Below are positions 6,515-46,476 of a DNA stretch of 54,940 nucleotides, in pieces. The DNA is from a phage. The stretch is taken from the NCBI GenBank assembly GCA_025829515.1, contig GCA_025829515.1_4865.2; one strand, given 5' to 3'. The position numbers and the translations under genes were made by a program. The notes beneath the pieces are model-generated. The model did not search any database and was not told the DNA's origin. It worked only from the letters and a program-made list of their open reading frames with translations. How positions within the stretch are numbered: position 1 is the first letter of the stretch; every line of letters starts with the position of its first letter.

Positions 6515-6567
6515 GGCGTACTCTCTTCGGGGAGTACGCCAATCTTATTTTTTTTTATTTTTTTTTT
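6515..6567 (+). terminator. rho-independent terminator
   Basis: Stem ggcgtact/agtacgcc with cUUCGg-type loop followed by a long T-tract. Confidence 0.6.
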
Positions 6568-7164
6568 GGTTACTTTTTAACCAACCGGTTAAAGGGGTCT
6601 GGGAAGCATCAGAAAACGATTAGGTGGTATCGACGTAGGGTAGCTCGTTTTTGGCAGTTTATCGTTTTCTAGGGTCGGTTACGTGCGTTTTAGAGGGGGT
6701 TATGTATCGAGACAGAGAATTTATTTTTGTCGGGGCGAGGAAATTCAGGGAATGGGGATTCAGGATTGTATGTTTTTTAACCAGTTATTAAAAACGCTCT
6801 AGAAAGCGCTAGAACGAGATTTAACTCAGACCCAGTACACTTGGGTTCCCCCTACCGGAAAATCGCGCCAGCGGGCCGTTGAGAGCGCGAGAGTGCCATT
6901 CCCGTTTCGGTTCCGGGACGACGGTCGCGGCCGGCGACGACGATCACACGTTGGGTAGCACTTCGTGCCATGTCTGGGTGAAAACTGGATCGTTCTGTAA
7001 CCGACACACACTGTCGGTTACTTACGAGTTCTTTGGGTTGTTTAACTCGCTCTAAAATCCCCCTTAGGGGATAATTTAATCTAATTCTCAAAATTTCTTT
7101 TTAAAACAATCACTTAGATTGTTTTTTAGATTGATCCTGTGGATCGGGTCGAAGACCCTTTCCT

Positions 7165-7330
7165 TATACGCGTGCGCGTGCGCACACCCGTATCCTCCAG
7201 GATCTTTTAAAATATATAATAATATTAAATATAATAATACCTTTAGGTATTATATTTAATTATTATAATTATTTATATAAATAAATATATTAATATATTA
7301 AGATCTTAAAACGCGTGCGGGCGCGCGCGT
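7165..7330. other. AT-rich imperfect palindrome (~110 bp, >90% AT) flanked by alternating purine-pyrimidine GC tracts; candidate origin or DNA-unwinding element
   Basis: Left tract tatacgcgtgcgcgtgcgcacac (7165-7187) and right tract cgcgtgcgggcgcgcgcgtg (7311-7330) bracket a block centred on the hairpin aataatacc-ttt-aggtattat (7232-7252); GATC-containing repeats flank both sides. Confidence 0.45.
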
Positions 7331-9577: not shown

Positions 9578-9820
9578 ATGAACTTGTATTTGCTAGAACG
9601 AACTGACGATATCGGGTATGATGAATTTGATTCCATAATCGTGGCGGCTCCTACGGAGCAAGCTGCGTGTGCAATTCCTCCCGACTGTGGCCATTGGATG
9701 GACTGCCGCTGGTTACCGAAAGAGCGCTGGGATGAAGGGCTTACCCTGACCGTTACTCTTATCGGTACTACGCACTATCCTGCTGGGACCGTCGTTCATG
9801 AATCGTTCAATGCTGGCTAA
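9578..9820 (+). CDS. hypothetical small protein, paralog of the 8280..8855 repeat domain
   Basis: 80-aa ORF starting MNLY like 8280..8855; GGAG RBS; followed by hairpin 9823-9840. Confidence 0.45.
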   Translation: MNLYLLERTDDIGYDEFDSIIVAAPTEQAACAIPPDCGHWMDCRWLPKERWDEGLTLTVTLIGTTHYPAGTVVHESFNAG

Positions 9821-10865
9821 ACAGTGGGCTTCGGCCCACTAACCCTATTCGAGCCGTGATACTTACTCAGATTGTGCGGGTTGATGTCCCGCATGAGCCG
9901 GTAGCAGCTCAGACCTACGGTAGACCAATAAATCCGTAGCAGCCAGGTACACAAAGTACCAGGTCGCTTGTACAGGATGCTGGGTATCTGACCGGTCATA
10001 ACCTCATTCGATACGAGACACGTTTATGCATGAAATACTCCAGTACATCAGGATGTTGATTTCCAACGTCCGGTTCTGGGTATTCAATCATGTTTGGTTT
10101 ACAGGCGATGGGTTTTCCCGCAAGGGCCCCACTTACAGACTGGCGTCTCCACGACAACCGTCCCTAGGGGACAGGCAAGCACCGGCCCATTAAGCCGCTA
10201 CGCTACGCCTGTAAATCCACAATCTGATAACCGAATGGGATTGAGTTCCCAGTGTTAGGGTGACTGTGTGTCACCGTAGGCGCGGTACCTCATACGGCCG
10301 GTACGCCACGAATGTACGTGATAGCGGGTGGTGCTTGGAGACGCTAAGACCTGACCTTGCGGCCAGGCTCAGAAGAAGAAGTCCATCACCCGCATTCAGA
10401 AATGAATTTAGGTTAATTATTATTTATGGAAGTGATGAAATCGTTTACGTGATAACTTAGTAGTATGCAACGAACAATACCAGAGTGACTTTACGAGGTT
10501 ACTGTGGTATATGTCGGTGCGCCGGGCAACGTGTTGCCGCAGATAAGCCCGAGGGAGCTGAGTGCACTAACACACGCCGGGATGCATCGGCACCTTACAA
10601 TGGGAGCGCTGTCACCATCAGTGATGACAGGAGTGAAGGATTCGTACCTCACTCGACTGGGCGGAAGCCTGGGCGTTCCCCCATCTTCACATCATGGCCG
10701 GCTTGCCGGTTCAACGTAGACGTCTCGTAAGAGATTTCCAGTCAGGCAACTGATAACACACCTAAGCGTCGACCTTGGACGTATGGTGTCTGGTTAAGTC
10801 CCCCGAAACGGAAACCAGTAGGGGTGTGGTACGTTGAGTGTAACTATCATGATGCCATGAACAAT

Positions 10866-12305: not shown

Positions 12306-12348
12306 GTCCTCACTCTTCGGAGTGAGGACAACTCTTTTATTTTTTTTG
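12306..12348 (+). terminator. rho-independent terminator
   Basis: Stem gtcctcact/agtgaggac with cUUCGg loop followed by a T-run. Confidence 0.65.
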
Positions 12349-19399: not shown

Positions 19400-19436
19400 C
19401 CCACTCTTCGGAGTGGGTTATTTTTTTTTCTTTTTT
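19400..19436 (+). terminator. rho-independent terminator
   Basis: Stem cccactc/gagtggg with UUCG loop and long T-tract. Confidence 0.65.
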
Positions 19437-23189: not shown

Positions 23190-23241
23190 GGCAGACTCCT
23201 TAGATTCCACATAGGAAGTCAGTCACAGTCAAAAATATCTC

Positions 23242-23256
23242 AGATTGATATTATCT
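23242..23256. promoter_or_regulatory. palindromic motif site C (cagattgatattatct, one mismatch)
   Basis: About 55 nt upstream of the minus-strand gene start at 23189, in a divergent intergenic region. Confidence 0.45.
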
Positions 23257-23337
23257 ATGTGACAGTTCCTGAGAAATGTCTGGACTATGTGCCTTGTAAG
23301 TAAGCGACGGCGTACTTGCATTCCATGAAATTACAGG

Positions 23338-23350
23338 CAGATATTATCTC
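23338..23350 (+). promoter_or_regulatory. palindromic motif site D (perfect core AGATAtTATCT)
   Basis: About 50 nt upstream of the highly codon-optimised 617-aa gene. Confidence 0.5.
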
Positions 23351-23395
23351 TGCGAACCGAACTATGATTGCAATCACTATTAAGGAATATTTAAA

Positions 23396-25249
23396 ATGGT
23401 AAAAATCGTTGACTCTAACAACAACGCTCAGCAGAACAACACTCAGACTCAAGACACCGCACCACTGGGCGGTCTGGGCAACGAGACTGTAAAAGTGCAA
23501 ACTGCTGTGCCGGGTACTTCTACTGTCAGCCAATTCGATAACGCATTTGGCATCCGCAACATCAGCACCTATGCAATGCACTTCGTCAACCTCCTGGACG
23601 AGCTGAAGAAAAGCAACGAATACCTCAACGCATTCCGCTGGGGCACCATCGCTGGCGTGGGTAACGAAATGGGTTCCGCGGCGTATGTCGCAGGCCAATG
23701 GCAGGGCCACTGGCTGTATGGTATCATCTTCTTTGAACGCGGTCAGTCTCTGCGTCTGAAAGAAACTACCAACAACGGCCAGGAAGACTACTACACCATC
23801 ACTGAACTGTTCAACAAAGACGTGCTGGCAGTAGTACAGAAAAACATCATGGAAGCGCATGGTCTGACCAATGCGAACTTCATGATCATCAACTCCGTAC
23901 CAGACCTGGGTAAAGTTCTGGATGCTGAGTGGGCACGTACTCTGATGGGTCAGATGATGATGGGCATCTTCGGTCGTATCGCAGGCTACCTGGGTACGCT
24001 GAACCTGCGTAAGCATGACCGTTATCAGGCTGCAGTAATGCCGCTGGAAGATGGTGCGGTTGTGGATGCTAACGGCCACGCACAACGTGCTGATTTCGCA
24101 ATCACCGTTGAGCACAGCCCAAGCAACGTATCCGACGCCACTCCGACTCTGCTGGACACCAATCAGGTACAGGTGTATCCGCGTGTATCCGGTACTGGTT
24201 TCGTCAACATGCGTTTCACCGGTCAGAAGCCTGTCGTTAACGGCGTCTACGACCTGAAACAGCTGCAGGCTGAAATCGTAGTAAGTCTGGTCGATTCTCA
24301 AACTGAAGGTGCAATGGCACCGTATGAACGTCAACTGCTGCTGCTGGCTGCATTTGCAGAAATCGCGGCAATCGGTGGCTGGCGTGACCTGTTTGTGAAA
24401 CGTCTGAACAAACAAGATCGCAAGTTCTCCCGTGTGGCAGAATACCTGTCCTGGGGTGCTGACGCTCGTCCTGATGTATCCAAAATCGACGGTAGCCGTG
24501 AAGCTATCGAAGGTTGCCTGGATATGTTCGCACCGCGTGAAGCAGCACTGGTAGTTAGCCATCGTGCCGGTAACGGTCTGGGTGGTCTGTCTACTATGCT
24601 GTCTGAAATTGCGGTCGGTTACGACAACTCTCTGAAACAGCTGCTCGCTATTCTGAATTCCATGTCCCCGCGTGATCAGAACGGCGAAGTTGTTGCAGCG
24701 ACCAGCTTCACTGCAGTATTTGCTTCTGCACTGAAAGCACAGCTGGGCGATGCCTTCAATGGTACCATCCATTGCAGCCACATCGTGAAAGCAGCCGTAC
24801 CGACTGTTTCCGGTGTTTACACCGGTACTGCACAGAAACGTAGCTTCCAGGATATGGACCTGATTTCCGTTGTTACCAAACTGGGTGATAACGCGAACGA
24901 CGTCTATAGCTACCTGAACGCACAGTCCTACAGCCACCGTGAACTGAACGAGCGTCAACAGCGTATCTACATGCTGAAACTGGCCGCTTCTCTGTTCGCA
25001 TCCAAAGCACCGCAAGCTACCGGTGAATCTCTGGATATGGCTATCAACCCGATCTTCGGTAAATGCCTGCTGGACTTCGTCCGTAACAACTGCACCTGGT
25101 CTATGACTGGTGTAAATGCCTACAACACGATGGCGACCTCTCTGTTCTTCAACAACGGTGGGGAAGACTTCACGCTGTCTGGCAACGGCCTGTCTGCAAG
25201 CGGTTCCGATTTCGGTCTGGGCGTGTCTCTGAGCAACTTCAAACTGTAA
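23396..25249 (+). CDS. abundant 617-aa protein; candidate phage-nucleus shell protein (chimallin-like) by synteny, alternatively a major structural protein
   Basis: Strongly biased codon usage (ctg, cgt, ggt, aaa) implies very high expression; AAGGA RBS; lies immediately upstream of the RNAP beta' N gene, as chimallin does in phiKZ; no sequence-level confirmation. Confidence 0.6.
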   Translation: MVKIVDSNNNAQQNNTQTQDTAPLGGLGNETVKVQTAVPGTSTVSQFDNAFGIRNISTYAMHFVNLLDELKKSNEYLNAFRWGTIAGVGNEMGSAAYVAGQWQGHWLYGIIFFERGQSLRLKETTNNGQEDYYTITELFNKDVLAVVQKNIMEAHGLTNANFMIINSVPDLGKVLDAEWARTLMGQMMMGIFGRIAGYLGTLNLRKHDRYQAAVMPLEDGAVVDANGHAQRADFAITVEHSPSNVSDATPTLLDTNQVQVYPRVSGTGFVNMRFTGQKPVVNGVYDLKQLQAEIVVSLVDSQTEGAMAPYERQLLLLAAFAEIAAIGGWRDLFVKRLNKQDRKFSRVAEYLSWGADARPDVSKIDGSREAIEGCLDMFAPREAALVVSHRAGNGLGGLSTMLSEIAVGYDNSLKQLLAILNSMSPRDQNGEVVAATSFTAVFASALKAQLGDAFNGTIHCSHIVKAAVPTVSGVYTGTAQKRSFQDMDLISVVTKLGDNANDVYSYLNAQSYSHRELNERQQRIYMLKLAASLFASKAPQATGESLDMAINPIFGKCLLDFVRNNCTWSMTGVNAYNTMATSLFFNNGGEDFTLSGNGLSASGSDFGLGVSLSNFKL

Positions 25250-27296: not shown

Positions 27297-27878
27297 ATGT
27301 GGCTACAAGGTAGCACGGTGTGGACGAAACAGACCGAAGGTAGCGGGGCACTCAGCGTATTCAAAGAATCGTTTTCGCTGTCTAGCCTGGCACCCGATCT
27401 CGTTGACCGTGTAAAAGAACATTGTCAGGACTTAATCTCACTGGAGCGTTTCCGTGAAACATTCAGTACCGCACGTAAATTACGTTATAGCGATGCGGTA
27501 GAGATGGTAAGACAGATCGAAGAGTTGGGTGAATTCCAGTTCGCCAATGCTGCTTTACAGCCATTCCTCGTTGCCATGCCGGAATATCGTAAGTTGTATA
27601 ATGACGGTATGGCGACTGGTTATGAGAACGGCTTTTCTCGGTTGGATGTGTTCAAAGGCAATGCGTATATGCGTACCGATGACCACTTCCGCGAAGCAAC
27701 ATCGGGCATTTCGACGAAGTACGATGAAGATAAGATTTGGCAATGGGCTACCAATGAAGATCGTGCAGTACGACTGAGTCGAATCGATAAAGTGGATATT
27801 CAACTTAACTGGGCACGCATGTCAGCTTTCGACTGGGAAGATGGTGATCCCTGTTCGGAACTTGGCGCGACGTGTTAA
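27297..27878 (+). CDS. hypothetical protein
   Basis: 193-aa ORF; TAGGAG RBS. Confidence 0.55.
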   Translation: MWLQGSTVWTKQTEGSGALSVFKESFSLSSLAPDLVDRVKEHCQDLISLERFRETFSTARKLRYSDAVEMVRQIEELGEFQFANAALQPFLVAMPEYRKLYNDGMATGYENGFSRLDVFKGNAYMRTDDHFREATSGISTKYDEDKIWQWATNEDRAVRLSRIDKVDIQLNWARMSAFDWEDGDPCSELGATC

Positions 27879-27883
27879 AAAAG

Positions 27884-27912
27884 ATGGGGCTTCGGCCCCT
27901 CTTTTTTTCTTC
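27884..27912 (+). terminator. rho-independent terminator
   Basis: Stem ggggc/gcccc with UUCG loop followed by tctttttttcttc. Confidence 0.6.
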
Positions 27913-29021: not shown

Positions 29022-30153
29022 ACCTCCTAAGAAACCAGAAGGTGTTAAGCGCCTTTTGAACACTAACGATATCCATTTGTTGCATAAGCGTGTGCCTACT
29101 TGGCACATCGTGGATGTGATACGTGAGGTACTCATTAGCTGCGAAAATACGCTTGACGCCTTTTATATAGCAGGGGATTTATTTGATGATTCCCGACATC
29201 TTCGCCAGGAAGATTCTCAAGAAGCTGTGGGCTTCTTGACGTGGTTGCTCCAGTGGTCTAAGGCCACTAATACCGCAGTTCGCATCGTTGAGGGAACACC
29301 GTCCCATGACCATGGCCAGTCCAAAATAGTTGAGTCGCTGAACATCAGTATAGGCGCAGACTGTTTGTATTTGGCAGGGATCGGGATATTTTACGATCCG
29401 GCTCTCGATGCGATGGTAGGTTGGGTGCAGGACGAATATAAAGCTGCTGGCGTCGATGAAATTAATGCTGCTGCCACTGAGGCAGAAATGGCAGAACTGA
29501 TGGCGACACGAGGCTTGGAGAAGTTAGACTTTATCTTCATGCACGGCTGCTTCCAGTTTCAACTCCCTGTCGAGTCCCCTCGTTCTTTCCACGAGGAGTT
29601 CTGGTTGCCGAGAGTCAAGCACCTGATATTTATCGGGCATGACCATCGACCCAAGGAATTAGACAAGATAAGAGTTGTAGGTAGTCCTGAGCGACTATCT
29701 CAAGGTGAAGAGGAGGACAAAGGCGTAGCTCTTGTCGATTTCACCGATACGGTTGCCAGGGATTATTTCCTGGTTAACCCACGCGCGTGCCCGCAGAAAA
29801 AGATTCGGGCACAGGAAGACTTTGATGCGCAGTTAGCAGCTTGTCTTTCTGCATTAGAATACATCGACAATCATCCCTCGTCCGCTATTGGGCGATTTGA
29901 GGTCGAGTATTACGCAGGCTCACCGATGGCCGAATACGTCAGTCGGTGGAAAAAAGAATACACGTTCCACATTTCTGGAGAGCGTGTGCGCTCCTCTGAA
30001 GAGGAGGAGTTGTTAGTGAAGAGTTTTTCGAACGAAGCCCCAGTGTACGAAAAACCTACTCCTGAGAACTTCGAACGGTTGGTTCTCGAAGAGCTAACAT
30101 CAGTGAAGTACGACCCTGATGTTGTTACTGCAATCATTAGGAAAATAGAATGA
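29005..30153 (+). CDS. calcineurin-like metallophosphoesterase, SbcD/Mre11-like nuclease
   Basis: Ordered phosphoesterase motifs: TNDIHL (D-x-H), AGDLFDD (GDxxD), EGTPSHDH (GNHD-like), FMHGCF, FIGHDH (GHxH). Confidence 0.65.
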   Translation: MEKITKPPKKPEGVKRLLNTNDIHLLHKRVPTWHIVDVIREVLISCENTLDAFYIAGDLFDDSRHLRQEDSQEAVGFLTWLLQWSKATNTAVRIVEGTPSHDHGQSKIVESLNISIGADCLYLAGIGIFYDPALDAMVGWVQDEYKAAGVDEINAAATEAEMAELMATRGLEKLDFIFMHGCFQFQLPVESPRSFHEEFWLPRVKHLIFIGHDHRPKELDKIRVVGSPERLSQGEEEDKGVALVDFTDTVARDYFLVNPRACPQKKIRAQEDFDAQLAACLSALEYIDNHPSSAIGRFEVEYYAGSPMAEYVSRWKKEYTFHISGERVRSSEEEELLVKSFSNEAPVYEKPTPENFERLVLEELTSVKYDPDVVTAIIRKIE

Positions 30154-30986: not shown

Positions 30987-31051
30987 GTTAAAATTTACGT
31001 TAGTGGGACATCATGTGTGAACCACTAGACTGCTTTTCCGAAAAGGATGAA

Positions 31052-31723
31052 ATGATGATTAACCAAGAAATTTTCAAAGACAAATGGCTTTACCCGCAGA
31101 CCGAACCGGATCAGCAAAACCGTACGCGTAAACTCAACATCGAACCGAATGATTTCAACGGCGATGTTGAAACTATGAAGTTTAGCTACTCCTTTGGTAA
31201 GGGCGAAGGTCTCTATTTCTCTGCGCCGATTACGGTTTGCCGTACCATTATCGAAGCTCTGCAGGATTGTCTGCGTAAGAGCGAAAAGAGTATGCTGAAG
31301 TTTACTAACGAAAACGGCAACAAACCGCCCGTTAGTCTGATTGTTGGCCGTGAAGACAACCTGGTACCGTTCATCGCTATTGCCGGTGAAATCCAGGGCG
31401 TTGGTGCCCGCCAGAAGAAGTTCTACTTCTCCTACCCGAAAGGTTTCCGTATTTTCCGCGACGGCCAGCAGGTTTCTGATTTAGAACTTGCCGAGCGCTG
31501 CGCACGTGCGTTTATCACTAACTTCGAGAAGTTCTTACAGAACCTGGAAGAGAAATATAAGCCGCGTGAATTCCAGCAAGGTGGTGGTAGCTTCGGTCGT
31601 GGTGGATACGGTGGTGGCCAGGGTGGTGGCCAGGGTGGTGGTCAGCGTAGCGGCGGCGGTTATCAACAGCAGCAACAATCTGTACCTCCAGCAACCACTG
31701 ATTCTTACGACGAGTTCCTCTAA
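31052..31723 (+). CDS. hypothetical protein with Gly/Gln-rich disordered C-terminal tail ending in an acidic tip (possible ssDNA- or RNA-binding protein)
   Basis: AAAAGGA RBS before ATG 31052 (track start 31013); codon-optimised; C-terminus GGGSFGRGGYGGGQGGGQGGGQ...DSYDEFL resembles SSB-type tails. Confidence 0.5.
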   Translation: MMINQEIFKDKWLYPQTEPDQQNRTRKLNIEPNDFNGDVETMKFSYSFGKGEGLYFSAPITVCRTIIEALQDCLRKSEKSMLKFTNENGNKPPVSLIVGREDNLVPFIAIAGEIQGVGARQKKFYFSYPKGFRIFRDGQQVSDLELAERCARAFITNFEKFLQNLEEKYKPREFQQGGGSFGRGGYGGGQGGGQGGGQRSGGGYQQQQQSVPPATTDSYDEFL

Positions 31724-31804
31724 GAAACAAAATAAAAAATACGCCCAAGGGAAACCTTGGGCTATTAACGCTTATGCGTGGTCCTGCAACACACACTGTA
31801 AGAA

Positions 31805-31824
31805 GATTTAGATAGATATTATCT
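31805..31824 (+). promoter_or_regulatory. palindromic motif site E (gatttagatagatattatct)
   Basis: Perfect core; 20-mer identical to site F; ~40 nt upstream of the 31859 start. Confidence 0.5.
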
Positions 31825-31858
31825 CAGTGCAATCGACTATTCGCGGAGTTCAACTATA

Positions 31859-33493
31859 ATGAAAATTATGAAGATTAAAGACCGGATGACAATCGAGCAT
31901 CATGGTCAAGAGGTCACATTTATTGGCTTACGTTATCGGAAGGATAACAACGCACCCGACTACATCACTGTTAAAGGTAAACAGATTGCACGCGACAACA
32001 TTCTCTTCATGGAATTACAACGCGTGTGGGATTATTTAACGCCAGACGAACAAGATGAACTGTTCATGGCGTATCTGATGCTGGACGAGCTGGCAAACGA
32101 ATCGACGGAAACGCAGCGTAAGCACATGCCGAAGATTGTGCAGACGATTGCGAAGTTCCACAAGGCCGAAGTGTATCGTAAGCTGTATCCCATCGATAAG
32201 CTGTGGATTCCGCAGAACATGGAAGATACGCACGATGAAATGAACAGTAATTATCCGGAAGCGATGACGTACATTCGTCCGGACTATTACGAGTTGTTGA
32301 TACTGGTCCTGATGATTAAACCGTATATTCCGGTGTTCCTCACCATGGGGACGTTCCCGATAGGTAAGAACTTGCCAATCGAAACACATCGGAAAATGGT
32401 GTACAATCTGACATACTGTCTGGAGATGCTTCAAGACACAGAAGTCATGTCTTTACCTGCTATTCCGAAACTGCGTGGATTCCTACAGACAGTGATGGAA
32501 AAGGTAGAAAAAGAACTGGCAAACAAAGGTACGAACAGCACCAGTTTGTCGGTACTAGCTACGGTGCGGGGCTATGGCACGGATATGATGGAAGATTATA
32601 TCCTGGCGTATGCTATTATTAAATTGTTGGCTGTCCGTGAAGTCGGTGGTGAATTACCGGTTGAAATCATGGTTAACAACAATATCGTCACCGGCATGTA
32701 TTTTCTGGTTAAACAAGAGATTGAAACAGGTTTTGCAAACAAAATCTCTAACCAGCCGGTGCTGTTAAAAGCGCATCCGGAAAGTGTGGTATTCAATGGC
32801 GAAAAGGGTAAGATAAACGCCATGGATTTGGTGCAGGCACGTTCTCCTGCACAGATGAAAGAATACGTCCGTACCGAGTACGTATTTAAAGAATACCGCT
32901 CTTTCTTGAAAACAATGCGTCTGGATAATGCCGCTCCAGCAGATGTTAAGTTATTGATTGATTCGCAACTGGCAACACACGACGGTCCTGTCTATACGTT
33001 GCACGAATGGTTAGTCGCATTAGCACTCCATCGTAGCGTGCATTATAAGACGTATACTGAATGTGGACCAGAAGCGTTTCGCTACGGTATGGCATTGGCG
33101 CAGGCAACTTATCTCAATTATGGAATGTATGACGTTGCGCAACTGTTAAGTTGCAATATGGTGCGTTCTGAGATGTCTGCCGGCTATGCAGCCGACCCAA
33201 TTCGATCTGAACTCAAAGCAGATTTAGATAGATATTATCTTCAGGAGTATCGCAACCCGCGTAATCTCGAACCGCAATCTACACCACGGGAATCACTGAC
33301 CTTGTTACACAAGGATCACATCAACCCGTATCTGTTCCATCTCAGGGCTACACCAGAAGCAGCTGCGCTGCTGAAGTGTGAGACGGATCAGCCAAACTAT
33401 ATACCTCACTTGTCACTGCACAATAGCCTGGCGGAGTTTATGGTGTTGAATGCACGTCGCAAGTTAGAAGAAGTTGAATGGTTTAATTCTTAA
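31859..33493 (+). CDS. hypothetical protein
   Basis: 544-aa ORF downstream of motif site E. Confidence 0.6.
   Translation: MKIMKIKDRMTIEHHGQEVTFIGLRYRKDNNAPDYITVKGKQIARDNILFMELQRVWDYLTPDEQDELFMAYLMLDELANESTETQRKHMPKIVQTIAKFHKAEVYRKLYPIDKLWIPQNMEDTHDEMNSNYPEAMTYIRPDYYELLILVLMIKPYIPVFLTMGTFPIGKNLPIETHRKMVYNLTYCLEMLQDTEVMSLPAIPKLRGFLQTVMEKVEKELANKGTNSTSLSVLATVRGYGTDMMEDYILAYAIIKLLAVREVGGELPVEIMVNNNIVTGMYFLVKQEIETGFANKISNQPVLLKAHPESVVFNGEKGKINAMDLVQARSPAQMKEYVRTEYVFKEYRSFLKTMRLDNAAPADVKLLIDSQLATHDGPVYTLHEWLVALALHRSVHYKTYTECGPEAFRYGMALAQATYLNYGMYDVAQLLSCNMVRSEMSAGYAADPIRSELKADLDRYYLQEYRNPRNLEPQSTPRESLTLLHKDHINPYLFHLRATPEAAALLKCETDQPNYIPHLSLHNSLAEFMVLNARRKLEEVEWFNS
33221..33240 (+). promoter_or_regulatory. 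palindromic motif site F, embedded in the 3' part of CDS 31859..33493
   Basis: Exact 20-mer gatttagatagatattatct, here encoding DLDRYYL; ~270 nt upstream of the 33506 start. Confidence 0.4.
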
Positions 33494-33505: not shown

Positions 33506-35206
33506 ATGCAGCTTGTAAATCTACTGATGTATCCGGTCTACGATGTTCCAGAGCAAGTTCGTCGCCGCATCGGCTTTAACGCATCTACGGGTGCGCTGGA
33601 TGACTTAGCAGCAGCGGTTGAACTGGGCGGGGAAAAAGCTGTGGGGACACAGCAGTATCAAGAAGCGTTATCTGCCATCGTGGGCTTCGATGGCACCCAG
33701 AATGGTTTTGAGCGTCCATTCATCAACGTGTCCGATGATGACAATCGTCCTGTACAGTTCCAATGGGAATCACGTGATACCGGTATCTTTAACTTCGTGG
33801 CGGTGTTTATTGCTAAACCTCTGAATGCAACACGCACTCAGGAAACGCAATACATCGTCTCCGGTTATACCAGTCAGGCAGAAACCAGCCTGGGTAGCCT
33901 GCTGCCGGACGATATGGTGTTGTACATTAACGACATCTACGGCTTACAGGCAACGTATACACACGATGCCCTGGGCGGCAAAACATTGAACCCAGACTCA
34001 TTCCGTCTACTGGATAACTACGTTTTATCGAAAGCGCTGTCTGTTGAAGGTCAAACAGAAAGTACGGTAGATATCATTTCGATCGCGAAAGCAGCGGACA
34101 TGGTAAAACGTATTGAAATGAATAGCGGTGAGAAGTTCGTCCCAACGAGCGACTCTGTGCTATCCGCAACCAGTAGCTCTGCACCACAGTTGATGGTATC
34201 CCAACTCCAGCGTCCAGAAAACTACGTATCTGCCATCAGTAATGCGTATCTGGCAAGCTCTGGGGTAGATACCGAACTCGGTAGCGTGGAAAGCTTCTTT
34301 GCAGGTAATAACTCCATCGGCGTTGAATCTGAATTGAAGCAACGTGGTGTTATCCGTAACTACAGCAACCACGAACTGATTGCTGCGATGCGTCAAGCAC
34401 TCCAGAACGGGATGTCTGATGTATCTGGCGGCTGGAAAGCAACCAGTAAGGCGACGTTCCGTTTGGCTGATTTGCGTAATGCGATTGTCAACCCAATGCG
34501 GTTGGATGAATGTATCCGTGAATCGCTGGCGCTGGCAAGTCGCCGTGGGTTGGGTGCAGGGCTGGTTAACCAAACCGACCACTGGATTGGACGTAATGGC
34601 TTCTCCACGCAGGGTAGTCTAGTTGCGTATGATCTGGCTATGTCTATCGGGCCGATTATGTCACGTAACCTGATTGGTGAAGTGAGCTTTGTCTTTGATA
34701 ACCGCAACACAGATATCATGATAGAGCCTACGCTGGAAGTTATTCCTAACTCAGTCAGCAGCATCACGCACCATCAGTTACCTGCTGCGTTAGGTCGTCG
34801 TTTCTTGCAGAACATGAAAGAAGCGATGGTTCAGGTTACTAAACATAACCATATTCGCTGCCACATGCTGGTCACCGCATTGTTGGGGACCGTTACTCGT
34901 ATTGAAATCCGTGTCGACGACGAACCGCTGGAATATTACACCTACGCGTCGTTTATGCAATTCCGTCTTCATACCGGCAACACCACCGATCTCAAATACG
35001 TTGGTGAGCTGGCACAGAACACCGCAACGCTGTTGAAAGCCGTGGAAGAAGGTTATACAGAATTCGAGAAAGGCCAAGGCCGGGGTCGAATGCTATCTAA
35101 CATTCCAACTAACACAGGTGGCTTAGATCCTCTCGGAGGTCTTGACCTGGGTGGTGGCTTAGGCGGTATAGGCGGAAACGGACTCGGCAACGGTCTCATT
35201 GATTAA
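33506..35206 (+). CDS. hypothetical protein with Gly/Leu-rich C-terminal tail
   Basis: 566-aa ORF; AAGGAG RBS; C-terminus GGLDPLGGLDLGGGLGGIGGNGLGNGLID. Confidence 0.6.
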   Translation: MQLVNLLMYPVYDVPEQVRRRIGFNASTGALDDLAAAVELGGEKAVGTQQYQEALSAIVGFDGTQNGFERPFINVSDDDNRPVQFQWESRDTGIFNFVAVFIAKPLNATRTQETQYIVSGYTSQAETSLGSLLPDDMVLYINDIYGLQATYTHDALGGKTLNPDSFRLLDNYVLSKALSVEGQTESTVDIISIAKAADMVKRIEMNSGEKFVPTSDSVLSATSSSAPQLMVSQLQRPENYVSAISNAYLASSGVDTELGSVESFFAGNNSIGVESELKQRGVIRNYSNHELIAAMRQALQNGMSDVSGGWKATSKATFRLADLRNAIVNPMRLDECIRESLALASRRGLGAGLVNQTDHWIGRNGFSTQGSLVAYDLAMSIGPIMSRNLIGEVSFVFDNRNTDIMIEPTLEVIPNSVSSITHHQLPAALGRRFLQNMKEAMVQVTKHNHIRCHMLVTALLGTVTRIEIRVDDEPLEYYTYASFMQFRLHTGNTTDLKYVGELAQNTATLLKAVEEGYTEFEKGQGRGRMLSNIPTNTGGLDPLGGLDLGGGLGGIGGNGLGNGLID

Positions 35207-35218
35207 GGATTATTAACC

Positions 35219-36586
35219 ATGAAATTGATTGAATTCTACCGTTCGTTTCTGACCTCGCTCGGATACGGATTCGAAGGTGACATGCTGACTATCGATGATG
35301 GTCATCCGGCAATGTTCACCTACAACAAAGTGAAGCGCCGCTTGGTGCTTCCAACTGCAGCGATGATTAAGCGTGGGTTGGAAGATGACGAAGGTAGTGA
35401 ATGTCATGCGTTCCACCCACTGTGTGAATCGGTACTGGCTGGCGAATCTGGAACGATTCGTTTCCTGAAGAAAGCCATCAACGCGAACCTCTTCCTGAAA
35501 AGCTTCGAGTTAATCGATGCGATTTTGGAAACAGCAGCCGAAGGAAAAAATATCCGTCTGGCAGCGTACAAGAAGTTTTTAAGCGATGTGGTTTGTGCTG
35601 ACCTGAAAGATCCAACGATGGATAAGAAACTGGTTCAGAGCTGGCACGCAGTGAAGAACTACGTTTACGGGTTGCTGGAAGAAGATAAAAAGACAAAGAT
35701 CACCAGTATCTTCATCTCCAGCGATATGACCATTGAAGGTATCAAATATATCCGTGTGGCGAACTACAAACACATGTTTGAAGAAGAGTCACTGGATGGT
35801 ACGGCAACATTCTTCGGTGCCAAGCTCCAGCGTAAGCAGGATAAGGTCATTATCTTTAACCTGCTAACTGCAGTGTTTGGTTGGTATCCTTCGGTTACGG
35901 GTTCTAACGATCCGCGTCCGTACTTCGGTTCTTTGGCACGCGGTTGGGCACAATACGTGACCAACTACAATCAAGTGGTTCGTGGTCTGCGTGACCACAC
36001 TCCACTGCGTCCGTTAGAAGAAGAATGGATTGGCCAACTGGATAACATGAGCGTTTATGATAACGTTATCCAAACTCTGCCGTATAATACCGGCCCACGC
36101 ACCGATCAGGCAACAGACACCACCGCAACGGATTTCCGTATCGGGCGTACACCTGCCGGCACAAAGCCGGTCGTTGCTTTAGCTTCTCAACAAGCTCCGC
36201 AGGAAAATCTTGATCTCAACGATCCGGTAAACTATTTCCGTGCGAAGAAAGCGCAACAGGCGTCTTCAGCTAATAGCTTCAATGCGTTAGCACCGAAGAT
36301 TCAGGAAGCGCTGCGTGAGAACAACGGCCATTTACCGAAAGGGACAATTAAAGAACTGTCTCTCGGTGAAGCGCTGCGTGGTAATGCGGTGACGAAAGAA
36401 AGTGGTCTGGGTTCTGGTTTGCTGGGAAGTAGTAATAATCTCTTGGGGGGTAGCACGCAGTTGGGCGGCGGTAGCACCAACCTCTTAGGAGGGAGTAGTG
36501 ACGTGTTAGGTGGTCTGGGTGGTTTAGGTGGCGGAAGTAGCAGCAGTTTAGGCAACCTACCATTCTCATCAGCTAATTTACGTTAA
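35219..36586 (+). CDS. hypothetical protein with Gly/Ser/Leu-rich C-terminal tail
   Basis: 455-aa ORF; AAGGA RBS; C-terminal ~70 aa of LLGG/SGLG repeats. Confidence 0.6.
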   Translation: MKLIEFYRSFLTSLGYGFEGDMLTIDDGHPAMFTYNKVKRRLVLPTAAMIKRGLEDDEGSECHAFHPLCESVLAGESGTIRFLKKAINANLFLKSFELIDAILETAAEGKNIRLAAYKKFLSDVVCADLKDPTMDKKLVQSWHAVKNYVYGLLEEDKKTKITSIFISSDMTIEGIKYIRVANYKHMFEEESLDGTATFFGAKLQRKQDKVIIFNLLTAVFGWYPSVTGSNDPRPYFGSLARGWAQYVTNYNQVVRGLRDHTPLRPLEEEWIGQLDNMSVYDNVIQTLPYNTGPRTDQATDTTATDFRIGRTPAGTKPVVALASQQAPQENLDLNDPVNYFRAKKAQQASSANSFNALAPKIQEALRENNGHLPKGTIKELSLGEALRGNAVTKESGLGSGLLGSSNNLLGGSTQLGGGSTNLLGGSSDVLGGLGGLGGGSSSSLGNLPFSSANLR

Positions 36587-36596
36587 GCGTTAGAAA

Positions 36597-36626
36597 GAAG
36601 GGACTGGGCGTCCCTTCTTTTTTTCA
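36597..36626. terminator. bidirectional rho-independent terminator
   Basis: Stem aagggac/gtccctt flanked by an A-rich stretch upstream and T-run downstream; between convergent genes. Confidence 0.6.
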
Positions 36627-36947
36627 AGATTCTACGATAGTCGATAAGATGTTACTTACCACACCGACACTAGGAACCAATAAGGTTCTTATCTCTGGCG
36701 TGAAATCAAACGGAGTAGAAATTCCGTTCATTAACATCATCGGATAAATAATACTATTATCGTACTGTTTGAGACGACAGTACGCGTAGAAACTGTGTAC
36801 CTCTGGGTAGGCATATTTTGGGTCAACAACTTCTTCTGTAGTATCTGGGTGTTTGCGAAGGAAGTCTGTATAGTCATGCAACACCTTATACTTGGTCGAA
36901 TCAGGCGAAGGTATTATTTCGGATAAGGTAGCAAATTTATCTAGCAT
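36624..36947 (-). CDS. hypothetical protein
   Basis: 107-aa ORF; ATG (plus 36945-36947) preceded by AAGGAGA on the minus strand. Confidence 0.55.
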   Translation of the reverse strand: MLDKFATLSEIIPSPDSTKYKVLHDYTDFLRKHPDTTEEVVDPKYAYPEVHSFYAYCRLKQYDNSIIYPMMLMNGISTPFDFTPEIRTLLVPSVGVVSNILSTIVES

Positions 36948-36967
36948 CGTCTCTCCTTAAAATAAAA

Positions 36968-36984
36968 CAGATAGATATTATCTT
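36968..36984. promoter_or_regulatory. palindromic motif site G (cagatagatattatctt)
   Basis: Perfect core in the divergent intergenic region between 36624..36947 (minus) and 37014 (plus). Confidence 0.5.
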
Positions 36985-37013
36985 ACCGAGGTAACCAAAA
37001 GGAGCATTTACGA

Positions 37014-39251: not shown

Positions 39252-41356
39252 TGGCGGGTCGTTCTGTACACGTGCGTGATTTGCGTATGCTTAACTCTGA
39301 TCAGGTGTGGAAACTACGCGGGCGTTATTACGTGACATTCGACGATGGTAAGTCGTTGGAAATGTCTAGTCGCCACATCAAACTCAGCTGGCCGTATTGG
39401 GGTGTGTCGCGTCTGTATCCGCAGGTGCCCACTCCATCGACCATGGCGTATCGTCCAGGTCAGGTAGCAACAGATGACCTGCATCTGGACTTTATGTCGG
39501 AAGCAGCGGTACTGGCCCGTAAAGCAGGTGTCGACCTTGCTGAAACGCGTTATATCCTGAGTCAACATGTCTACGCCGATGCGTTCAACATGACAGTGAA
39601 GAACTTGCTGTCGTATTGTACGACAATCGACTTTGACACGATGATGGAGATCTACGACCACCCGAACTTCGAACTCATCCGTCAGTGGGAAGTGCAATAC
39701 CCTACTGGCTACGATGAAGATGGTCAGGATATGGTTGAAGAAGCGTACAAGCTTATCGAGAAAATCTTCAAAGACCCTGCGCTACGGTATAACCCGGTCG
39801 TGATGTCGGTACTGGACGGTACTGTGAAGATGAACCAGGTACTGCAAGCCTTCGTGCGTGGTAAAACGTCAGAAATTGACTCACGTGTATACACCAATCA
39901 GGTGTGGGAAGGCTTCTTTACCGGAATGCACTCGGTTATTTCGCGTTTGAAAGAATCCGGTGCAACATCACGTTCCCACTTGTACAACACTGACAAGATT
40001 GCCGAAGCAGAATACGCCTCACGTAAACTGCAGCTGGCAGCAAACGTACTGATGTATTTCACGTACGACGACTGCGGTACAACTCACGCACACCGCTACA
40101 CGTTTAAGGATACGCAGCTGGATGAGCGTGCCTATAAAGCGATGGTGGGGATGCGTTATCGTTTAGAAGGCGATAATGGTCCGTGGTTGAGATTTGAGAA
40201 AGGTGGATACGCAGACCTGGTTGGTAAACCGCTGGTCTTCCGTAGTGCAATGACCTGTAAAGAGATGGCGAATCAGTCCATCTGTGCGACCTGCATGGGG
40301 GATTTGATTTATAACCTCTCTGAAGGCACGTCACCGGGTCACCTGGCATCCACTTCCATCTCAGAAAAGGGTACACAGGGAATTCTCTCCACCAAGCACC
40401 TTGACTTCTTGCGTTATCTGCTCAACCTGGTACTCACGCCGAGAATGCGTGAGTACATGACCGAATACAAACATAACTCTCTGAAAGGGTTGTGCTTGCT
40501 ACCAAAACCACAGCGTGGTAATTGGTCAGAATACGAGTTGGTCGTTACCGACAAAGTTTATTCGGAGCTGAGCCAGATTGCGTATCATGAAGATCTCGAT
40601 GCAATCGATGAAACAGCATTGCCGGAAATCACCGACTTGACATTCCAGCGTCGTTTAGAAGATGGGCAAATCATCGCTGCAGATTCTATCGATGTGCGAA
40701 TGGGTGTTTGTGGGAACTTCTCTAAACCGTTCTTGCATTACTTCTTGAAACAACGTGCGAACATTCGTATCGAGAAGAAGACGGTTCAGATTCCTTTGAA
40801 AGGATGGAACCCGAAACACCCGGTACTGGTCTACACCAACCGTTCTGAATCGATGGCAGAATTCGTGGCAGGGTTAGAAACCAAGCTACGTTCAATCGCA
40901 GCCGATAAGAACGAAGACATTGTGGAAATCATCAACACAGCCTCGACTGTGAAGTTGAACAAGAAACAAGGTCGTGTGAAACCGGTAACGTTGGTTGAAA
41001 TGGGTGGTGCTACAGAGAAACAGTGTACTTATGCGTTGATGGATACGTTTAAGTACATCCAGCGTAAGCTGAGCGGTATACCGATGACGCACATTGCGAT
41101 TATGTTGGCGATATCTCGTGTAGAGTCACCAACCAATCCGTTCCCGGCAGTAGGATTTGACAGTGAGGATTCTACTAATGCCACCGGGAAACGGTTTGTC
41201 GATCACAACACGCTCATTAGTTTGCGCTCGGCAATTCCGATGTTGTTGTTTGAAGGACAGCAGGGGAATATCGATCGCGTTGGTTTTTATACCGAGTACA
41301 AAATCCCGGCATCGTTGTACGATGACCTAGGAGCCGCTGTGGTAATTGAGTTGTAA
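39251..41356 (+). CDS. multisubunit RNA polymerase beta'-like C-terminal fragment (trigger-loop region)
   Basis: CATCMGDLIYNLSEGTSPGHLASTSISEKGTQGILSTKHLD aligns with E. coli beta' [42 protein letters not shown]; TAATG overlap with the upstream gene. Confidence 0.65.
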   Translation: MAGRSVHVRDLRMLNSDQVWKLRGRYYVTFDDGKSLEMSSRHIKLSWPYWGVSRLYPQVPTPSTMAYRPGQVATDDLHLDFMSEAAVLARKAGVDLAETRYILSQHVYADAFNMTVKNLLSYCTTIDFDTMMEIYDHPNFELIRQWEVQYPTGYDEDGQDMVEEAYKLIEKIFKDPALRYNPVVMSVLDGTVKMNQVLQAFVRGKTSEIDSRVYTNQVWEGFFTGMHSVISRLKESGATSRSHLYNTDKIAEAEYASRKLQLAANVLMYFTYDDCGTTHAHRYTFKDTQLDERAYKAMVGMRYRLEGDNGPWLRFEKGGYADLVGKPLVFRSAMTCKEMANQSICATCMGDLIYNLSEGTSPGHLASTSISEKGTQGILSTKHLDFLRYLLNLVLTPRMREYMTEYKHNSLKGLCLLPKPQRGNWSEYELVVTDKVYSELSQIAYHEDLDAIDETALPEITDLTFQRRLEDGQIIAADSIDVRMGVCGNFSKPFLHYFLKQRANIRIEKKTVQIPLKGWNPKHPVLVYTNRSESMAEFVAGLETKLRSIAADKNEDIVEIINTASTVKLNKKQGRVKPVTLVEMGGATEKQCTYALMDTFKYIQRKLSGIPMTHIAIMLAISRVESPTNPFPAVGFDSEDSTNATGKRFVDHNTLISLRSAIPMLLFEGQQGNIDRVGFYTEYKIPASLYDDLGAAVVIEL

Positions 41357-41359
41357 ACC

Positions 41360-41386
41360 GAGGGGCCTTGCGCCCCTCTTTTTTTG
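41360..41386 (+). terminator. rho-independent terminator
   Basis: Stem gaggggc/gcccctc followed by a T-run. Confidence 0.6.
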
Positions 41387-46437: not shown

Positions 46438-46445
46438 TAGAAATT

Positions 46446-46476
46446 CGGGGCTTCGGCCCCGTTTTCTTTTTTTTAT
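46446..46476 (+). terminator. rho-independent terminator
   Basis: Stem cggggc/gccccg with UUCG loop followed by ttttcttttttttat. Confidence 0.65.

Follow-up and report, generated by a model that had tools for sequence, protein, structure and literature searches.

Why should a 20-nucleotide (nt) sequence that stands upstream of a phage gene occur a second time, letter for letter, inside the 3′ part of that same gene? The question arises in a 54,940-nt stretch of DNA (contig GCA_025829515.1_4865.2; the whole stretch is called the window here) from an SPN3US-like jumbo phage of the genus Seoulvirus, a phiKZ-like group with genomes of about 240 kb. The region is 98 to 99% identical to Salmonella phage SPN3US and its relatives and about 78% identical to SPAsTU/STsAS and Erwinia phage pEa_SNUABM_29. 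The gene that carries the second copy is a homologue of phiKZ gp68 (the gp68-like gene below), and the analysis described here points to an early promoter, probably a functional one, embedded in its coding sequence.

31859..33493, + strand: host gene, homologue of phiKZ gp68, 544 amino acids (tblastn, blastp, phrog_3209, and synteny).

The window holds just two exact copies of the 20-mer, GATTTAGATAGATATTATCT, one at 31805-31824 and the other at 33221-33240, each on the + strand; the expectation from dinucleotide-preserving shuffles is 0.01 matches, and a search of the whole window with up to three mismatches allowed returned no further copy. The initial annotation had reported this exact repeat, and the true identity is even longer than it described, reaching one base further left to 21 nt (AGATTTAGATAGATATTATCT, 31804-31824 and 33220-33240). 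The first copy is intergenic, and the ATG of the gene at 31859 comes 35 nt later. The second is read in frame within open reading frame (ORF) 31859..33493 as GAT TTA GAT AGA TAT TAT CT(T), encoding D455-L-D-R-Y-Y-L461, the DLDRYYL peptide that had been named, and its end lies 266 nt before the next ATG (33506), close to the earlier estimate of ~270 nt.

33220..33240, + strand: internal copy of the 21-nt exact repeat, with codons for (A)DLDRYYL; it contains the cross-genus core GATAGATATTATC at 33227-33239.

The two copies belong to a larger family of sites. The core GATATTATCT is found six times on the + strand of the window, together with one GATATTACCT, and every core copy except the one at 33220 is intergenic, a few tens of nt before a + strand start codon. 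A 44-position scoring matrix was built from 15 intergenic SPN3US sites (consensus T..AA.A.AT.T.AGATAGATATTATCT..G.GA), and the assembled whole SPN3US genome was scanned with it. The scan returned 23 sites of >20 bits, all on the + strand. Of these, 22 lie 32 to 141 nt before annotated + strand starts, one of them reaching into the final codons of the gene before it; the remaining one, the internal site, alone sits deep in coding sequence. In the window, eight + strand sites scored at least 27.9 bits, compared with a maximum of 10.6 bits in 50 shuffles.

The internal site matches the phage's own predicted early-promoter consensus over its full length. Its SPN3US score of 30.2 bits falls among the leave-one-out values of the intergenic sites (28 to 48 bits), and besides the core the site retains the most informative flanking positions, namely, T-27, AA-24/-23, and G+6. 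The site before the gp68-like gene and the one inside it are as follows.

31792..31835, + strand: canonical intergenic promoter (predicted) of the gp68-like gene, 38.4 bits; it contains the 31804-31824 copy, and all relatives keep it upstream of the gene.

33208..33251, + strand: internal promoter-like site, full 44-nt matrix span, inside the gp68-like gene; 27.9 bits with the matrix from intergenic sites.

What kind of signal does this family represent? Jumbo phages that encode their own RNA polymerases each have a conserved AT-rich motif of about 10 nt, located near -10, upstream of presumed early operons (PMC7598289). In phages whose transcription has been profiled, such a motif is the early promoter consensus and is thought to be recognized by the virion RNA polymerase (PMC7598289). 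The gp68 homologue of 201phi2-1, gp124, has a mapped early promoter upstream (PMC11512511). phiKZ gp68 itself is preceded, 41 nt before its ATG, by the early consensus TATATTAC; both its ATATTA core and its relative position recur at 31804. By analogy with these phages, the motif family is best read as the form that the early promoter is predicted to take in the SPN3US clade, a relative of the phiKZ TATATTAC promoter.

The same family could instead be the binding site of a phage regulator or some other DNA signal, in which case the internal copy would be a roadblock, or a regulatory site, inside the operon. Its core does contain an 11-nt near-palindrome (AGATAtTATCT) of the kind typical of dimer-bound sites. 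We consider an operator quite unlikely, however. All 23 of the 23 high-scoring SPN3US sites are on the + strand, and the same palindromes score <18 bits in reverse, with the asymmetric flanks mattering. The spacing to start codons is promoter-like, the TATATTAC early consensus stands upstream of phiKZ gp68, and a motif predicted in this way proved to be the early promoter consensus in the profiled phages (PMC7598289). A promoter is therefore favored over an operator for the internal site, because the family sites are sense oriented 32 to 141 nt before starts and because phiKZ gp68 has TATATTAC at the same relative position.

Other members of the family were observed in passing. Tandem sites at 23224-23267 and 23317-23360 (47.6 and 38.4 bits), 93 nt apart, lie in a divergent intergenic region upstream of ORF 23396..25249, which appears to own a double early promoter. 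In SPN3US, a 333-nt gap behind the major head gene contains a strong site (47.9 bits, 72468-72511), which is followed by AAGGAG and an ATG without an annotated ORF; this may be an unannotated small early gene.

If the internal copy works as DNA, related phages should keep its nucleotides where the protein leaves them free to change. The 13-nt core GATAGATATTATC was found exactly, at homologous codons, in the following groups (percentages are amino acid identities to the window protein).

Seoulvirus (SPAsTU, pEa_SNUABM_29): core exact; 81 to 84% identity.

Erskinevirus (phiEaH2): core exact; 58% identity.

Machinavirus and Machinavirus-like phages (pEa_SNUABM_10, Huxley, Caitlin, ChrisDB, and two metagenomic contigs): core exact; about 50% identity.

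Wellingtonvirus (Kwan, pEa_SNUABM_11): core exact; 47 to 48% identity.

How unusual this is was judged from codon alignments of 11 orthologous genes in ten genomes of three genera and, with Wellingtonvirus added, of 9 genes in 12 genomes of four genera. In the 11-gene set, the codon was invariant in just 8.8% of the 1550 degenerate columns with an invariant amino acid. GAT AGA TAT TAT (D-R-Y-Y) was the sole run of at least three consecutive invariant codons, with the same result when Wellingtonvirus was included, and the 13-nt GATAGATATTATC was the longest invariant nucleotide run (runner-up, 10 nt). With amino-acid-specific invariance rates, 0.014 all-invariant codon runs were expected over the 206 windows of four invariant residues, and one was observed; with Wellingtonvirus the expectation fell to 0.004. 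AGA makes up 4.4% of Arg codons in the phage, and a gene that encodes DRYYL would spell the core with a probability of 0.003 per lineage. The conserved residues beside the motif (Q, Y, R, R, and N) vary freely at their synonymous sites. These results point to selection on the DNA beyond the encoded protein. Conservation of the motif at synonymous positions in relatives was the check proposed by the initial annotation for its suggestion of an internal promoter or operator superimposed on coding sequence; the core passed it, being invariant in four genera, and this silent-site conservation and the full-length family score support the suggestion, with a promoter preferred.

The simplest objection is that the DNA itself has no function here: the protein needs D-R-Y-Y-[LP], AT-rich codons happen to spell the core, and occasional gene conversion keeps the copies identical. 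DRYY, Y459, Y460, Q462, Y464, and R465 are indeed conserved in the protein across genera. The protein does not fix the codons, however; only 8 to 13% of invariant D, R, and Y columns keep a single codon, the core uses the rare AGA, and no other invariant run of three or four codons exists in the 9 to 11 genes. Nor does the peptide account for the promoter positions retained in the flanks (T-27, AA-24/-23, and G+6).

Two further conserved stretches were seen in these alignments. The 10-nt runner-up across the four genera, TTTATATAGC, lies in the SbcD-like gene (29162-29171) and is unlike the promoter motif. A dip in synonymous divergence at residues 482-497 of the gp68-like protein was considered as a second conserved element and rejected, as it consists of just two invariant codons (TTC CAT).

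Two more distant lineages provided a different kind of evidence, since there the internal site follows the promoters of the lineage. In Derbicusvirus (Phobos and CR5; 37 to 39% identity), most early promoters read ATATAT(G/A)TTA(T/C)C, and the internal site reads GA(C/A) ATA TAT TAT CC, with the peptide D/E-I-Y-Y-P. The Arg-to-Ile replacement (AGA to ATA) reproduces the G-to-T change by which the Derbicusvirus consensus differs from that of Seoulvirus. With a CR5-specific matrix from 18 intergenic CR5 sites, the internal site of CR5 scored 19.2 bits and ranked 19th of 447,892 positions, right behind the 18 training sites, although at the low end of their leave-one-out range (13 to 44 bits). 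By its sequence, Derbicusvirus is a fifth genus that keeps a weaker, lineage-typical version of the internal site.

In the Wellingtonvirus Erwinia phage Kwan, the 20 nt of the internal site (6842-6861) are identical to those of the polymerase-beta promoter at 10544-10563, GATAGATATTATCCTCATGA. The local peptide there is DRYYPHDYR, with His and Asp in place of the Gln and the Ala/Glu of other genera. This second long match between a true promoter and the internal site extends 3′ rather than 5′ and arose independently. It points to gene conversion among the promoter copies or to selection that they share.

From these comparisons, the promoter role appears to have pulled the protein sequence along in two of the five genera. 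A tentative and rather improbable extension is concerted evolution of the internal site with the true promoters, by short-patch gene conversion or polymerase-imposed selection, in which the promoter would dictate the subunit changes (R to I in Derbicusvirus; Q to H and A to D in Wellingtonvirus). If true, a promoter consensus would be shaping the protein sequence of a transcription-machinery subunit across five genera.

The extended identities bear on the protein-only explanation as well. At 21 nt in the window and 20 nt in Kwan, they resemble conversion tracts, and conversion requires homology, not function. Conversion seeded from a 13-nt core, however, repeated over five genera despite the Q-to-H and A-to-D changes in Wellingtonvirus, is hard to envisage without selection, and on balance we regard an absence of any DNA-level function as unlikely. 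Another way to obtain the same codon conservation is a constraint on mRNA or translation, such as a rare-codon pause at AGA that aids subunit folding or assembly, or a local RNA signal. The rare AGA is conserved in four genera, and synonymous divergence dips locally over residues 442-460. Such a constraint would nevertheless leave unexplained the match to a 44-position DNA matrix, including positions beyond the four codons, and Kwan's 20-nt copy of another promoter; in Derbicusvirus, AGA (Arg) has become ATA (Ile) with the promoter-like core kept, and the site has no Rfam match. We judge this explanation very improbable.

How much of the exact repeat matters? The 80-nt upstream region is 100% identical in only 3 of the 23 full-length SPN3US-like records and has one mismatch in the other 20. 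In SPN3US, the one record of these 20 for which the position of the mismatch was determined, the upstream copy reads GATTGAGATAG..., with the single difference in GATTGAG. The exact 20- to 21-nt identity is a strain-level detail over a deeply conserved feature. What the phages have in common is the 13-nt core GATAGATATTATC (also given as 13 to 14 nt) and a few positions beside it. Seven more bases, AGATTTA, agree between the two copies in the window; at the internal site they belong to the reading frame (..GCA GAT TTA..) and occur in both Seoulvirus subgroups. Upstream, the promoter of the SPN3US subgroup has GAAGATT(T/G)A, compared with GCTATCTT(G/A) in SPAsTU/pEa_SNUABM_29. Because these upstream differences cluster between flanks that are otherwise conserved, they suggest that, in the SPN3US lineage, a short tract of the upstream promoter was converted with the internal site as donor; the alternative is convergent selection on the -20 region.

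Taking the evidence together, we infer that the site at 33208-33251 is probably a functional internal early promoter in the 3′ part of the gp68-like gene. Several observations weigh against this. The site is the weakest of the eight in the window and lacks the common G+4 (AGG instead of GTG), and a leader of about 260 nt would be far longer than any other in the family. Its distance of 266 nt from the start codon compares with 32 to 141 nt for the other 22 SPN3US sites; it is sense oriented like them but intragenic. No internal counterpart was found in phiKZ gp68, where there is just a partial ATATTAC, at a nonhomologous position; the arrangement is therefore confined to this clade, and other phages evidently do without it. 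In SPN3US-like phages, the promoter class is itself a prediction by analogy with phiKZ and 201phi2-1, and we found in the literature no published 5′-end or expression data for Seoulvirus, Erskinevirus, Machinavirus, Wellingtonvirus, or Derbicusvirus. Finally, D-[RI]-Y-Y and neighboring residues are conserved in the protein, so that part of the nucleotide conservation is protein driven, and the conservation test compares sequences of common ancestry, for which the empirical baseline corrects only approximately.

Other signals were considered at the site and rejected. Counts of sigma-70 promoters and intrinsic terminators equaled those in shuffled sequence, with nothing at 33220-33250. A search for known RNA families (Rfam) gave just two chance-level matches elsewhere (E of about 0.75). 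The only hidden ORF at the site was a 23-amino-acid GTG ORF, and an in-frame internal start downstream of the site, an ATG near the end of the gene, is not conserved, being Leu in other genera.

If the internal early promoter is active, the following scheme would apply. The virion-packaged multisubunit RNA polymerase would recognize the AT-rich AGATAGATATTATCT near -10 and a small number of A/T positions upstream of it. Transcription would start at about 33245-33246, as judged from the invariant G+6 and the -10-centered geometry.

33245..33246, + strand: predicted transcription start region, placed by the G+6 after the core C, which is invariant in the family (2.0 bits), and by an AT-rich element near -10 (PMC7598289).

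The resulting mRNA would have a leader of about 260 nt, made up of the last 82 codons of the gp68-like gene, and would carry the next two genes, up to an opposite-strand gene and the next promoter of the family at 36951-36994. The first of the two is Imp1-like by synteny and occupies the gp69 position of phiKZ; the second is gp70-like.

33506..35206, + strand: first gene downstream of the internal site, gp69 position, 566 amino acids (synteny; phrog_3141).

35219..36586, + strand: second downstream gene, homologue of phiKZ gp70 (blastp E, 4e-12); the last before the opposite-strand gene and the next promoter.

36624-36947, opposite strand: gene after the gp70-like gene (ORF map).

36951..36994, + strand: next family promoter (predicted), 36.5 bits, conserved in all relatives; it precedes the gene for non-virion RNA polymerase beta (37014..).

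The two distal genes would be served by two promoters (31804 and 33220) and the polymerase-subunit gene by one, and their dosage would therefore be uncoupled from that of the subunit gene. Because the same 13 nt encode the conserved peptide D-R-Y-Y, the sequence would be under two constraints. If the gp69-position gene encodes an import factor as in phiKZ, its product may, speculatively, be needed in larger amounts than the imported polymerase subunit, or independently of it. A further and rather improbable reading, which goes with the concerted evolution considered above, is a hand-over circuit in which initiation by the early polymerase within the gp68-like gene sets the ratio of late-polymerase subunit to nuclear-import factor.

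Promoters inside coding sequences are well known in phages, for example, the T7 RNA polymerase promoters that boost distal operon genes. Like them, the internal site would serve a phage polymerase from within the coding sequence of an upstream gene, in the sense direction, and feed downstream genes. The T7 enzyme, however, is a single-subunit polymerase with an unrelated promoter sequence, whereas a multisubunit virion enzyme would act here, and the evidence for the internal site is comparative. The closest relatives are the early promoters of phiKZ and 201phi2-1, used by the virion multisubunit RNA polymerase and consisting of TATATTAC with a T-rich upstream region. Like these, the SPN3US-clade sites have an AT-rich element of about 10 nt with an ATATTA core, in sense orientation 30 to 60 nt before early genes that include non-virion polymerase subunit genes, and one lies before the gp68 homologue in all three (201phi2-1, PMC11512511). 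They differ in their consensus, AGATAGATATTATCT with a conserved downstream G(N)GA; in having an internal copy about 1.36 kb into coding sequence; and in that their start sites are predicted. The early promoters of AR9, a uracil-DNA Bacillus jumbo phage, follow the same strategy of an AT-rich -10-like motif upstream of early operons, with a different consensus and host; that motif was found by sequence analysis and confirmed by transcript mapping (PMC5312081, PMC7598289). We found no report in the literature of an internal promoter copy in the AR9 gene of the gp226/gp68 family. Judged by its sequence, the internal site belongs to the phiKZ-type early promoters in the form that they take in the SPN3US clade; it differs in its intragenic place, in its long leader, and in having no phiKZ counterpart, and intragenic phage promoters as such are known already.

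The prediction is precise and can be probed by synonymous mutations, with the protein unchanged. If the promoter is active, the late-polymerase subunit gene and its neighbors, one of them in the position of the phiKZ import-factor gene, are not one simple expression unit, and the locus would be a clear case of DNA serving both as protein code and as promoter, with both roles long kept in evolution. In practical terms, gene recoding, engineering, or operon annotation in these phages must account for the probable internal promoter.

The identity of the genes involved rests on the following comparisons. ORF 31859..33493 matched PHIKZ068 by tblastn (E, 2e-7; 78% of the query covered) and blastp (E, 6e-13), is a full-length match to phrog_3209, and stands in the same gene order as in phiKZ: gp65 (SbcD)-gp66-gp67-gp68-gp69-gp70-gp71 (polymerase beta). 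phiKZ gp68 is the fifth subunit of the non-virion RNA polymerase (PMC7598289; bioRxiv 10.1101/2024.03.27.586873). By sequence similarity, the ORF product is its homologue, and membership in the polymerase complex is assigned by analogy with phiKZ. The SPN3US RefSeq entry starts this homologue at an internal ATG (23886), 27 nt downstream of the ATG (23859) used in related records and in the window (MKI(M/T)KIKDR...), which is probably an annotation inconsistency.

In phiKZ, gp69 is the nuclear import factor Imp1 and gp67 is its partner Imp6 (bioRxiv 10.1101/2024.03.27.586873). The protein of 33506..35206 agrees with phiKZ gp69 in position and size only (566 versus 557 amino acids); in a pairwise BLASTP comparison, the only one made between the two, the best E was 2.3. 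Because this is not significant, homology to Imp1/gp69 was not adopted, and the gene is named gp69-position, from synteny alone, rather than Imp1. None of the unit's three genes (gp68-like, gp69-position, and gp70-like) matched Pfam. The gp67-position protein (31013-31723; the Imp6 position in phiKZ) has a C-terminal Gly/Gln-rich repeat (GGQGGG...), with no Pfam match and no blastp match to phiKZ gp67 at an E of 1e-3.

The gp67-like gene is followed, ahead of the gp68-like promoter, by a conserved hairpin, GCCCAAGG-TTTC-CCTTGGGC (31743-31762). It has a T run on its minus-strand side only and would therefore be an atypical terminator on the + strand. Elsewhere in the window, positions 7162-7307 are very AT-rich, with overlapping palindromes (inverted repeats I2, I4, and I15), and correspond to a place near the start/end of the SPN3US GenBank record. 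GC-rich hairpins with TTCG-type loops and T runs form two families, one at 6521-6555, 12311-12345, and 19402-19436 and the other at 9819-9837, 27878-27908, 41355-41385, and 46439-46469. These families contain CACTCTTCGGAGTG... and GGGGCTTCGGCCCC... and look like intrinsic terminators reused at operon ends.

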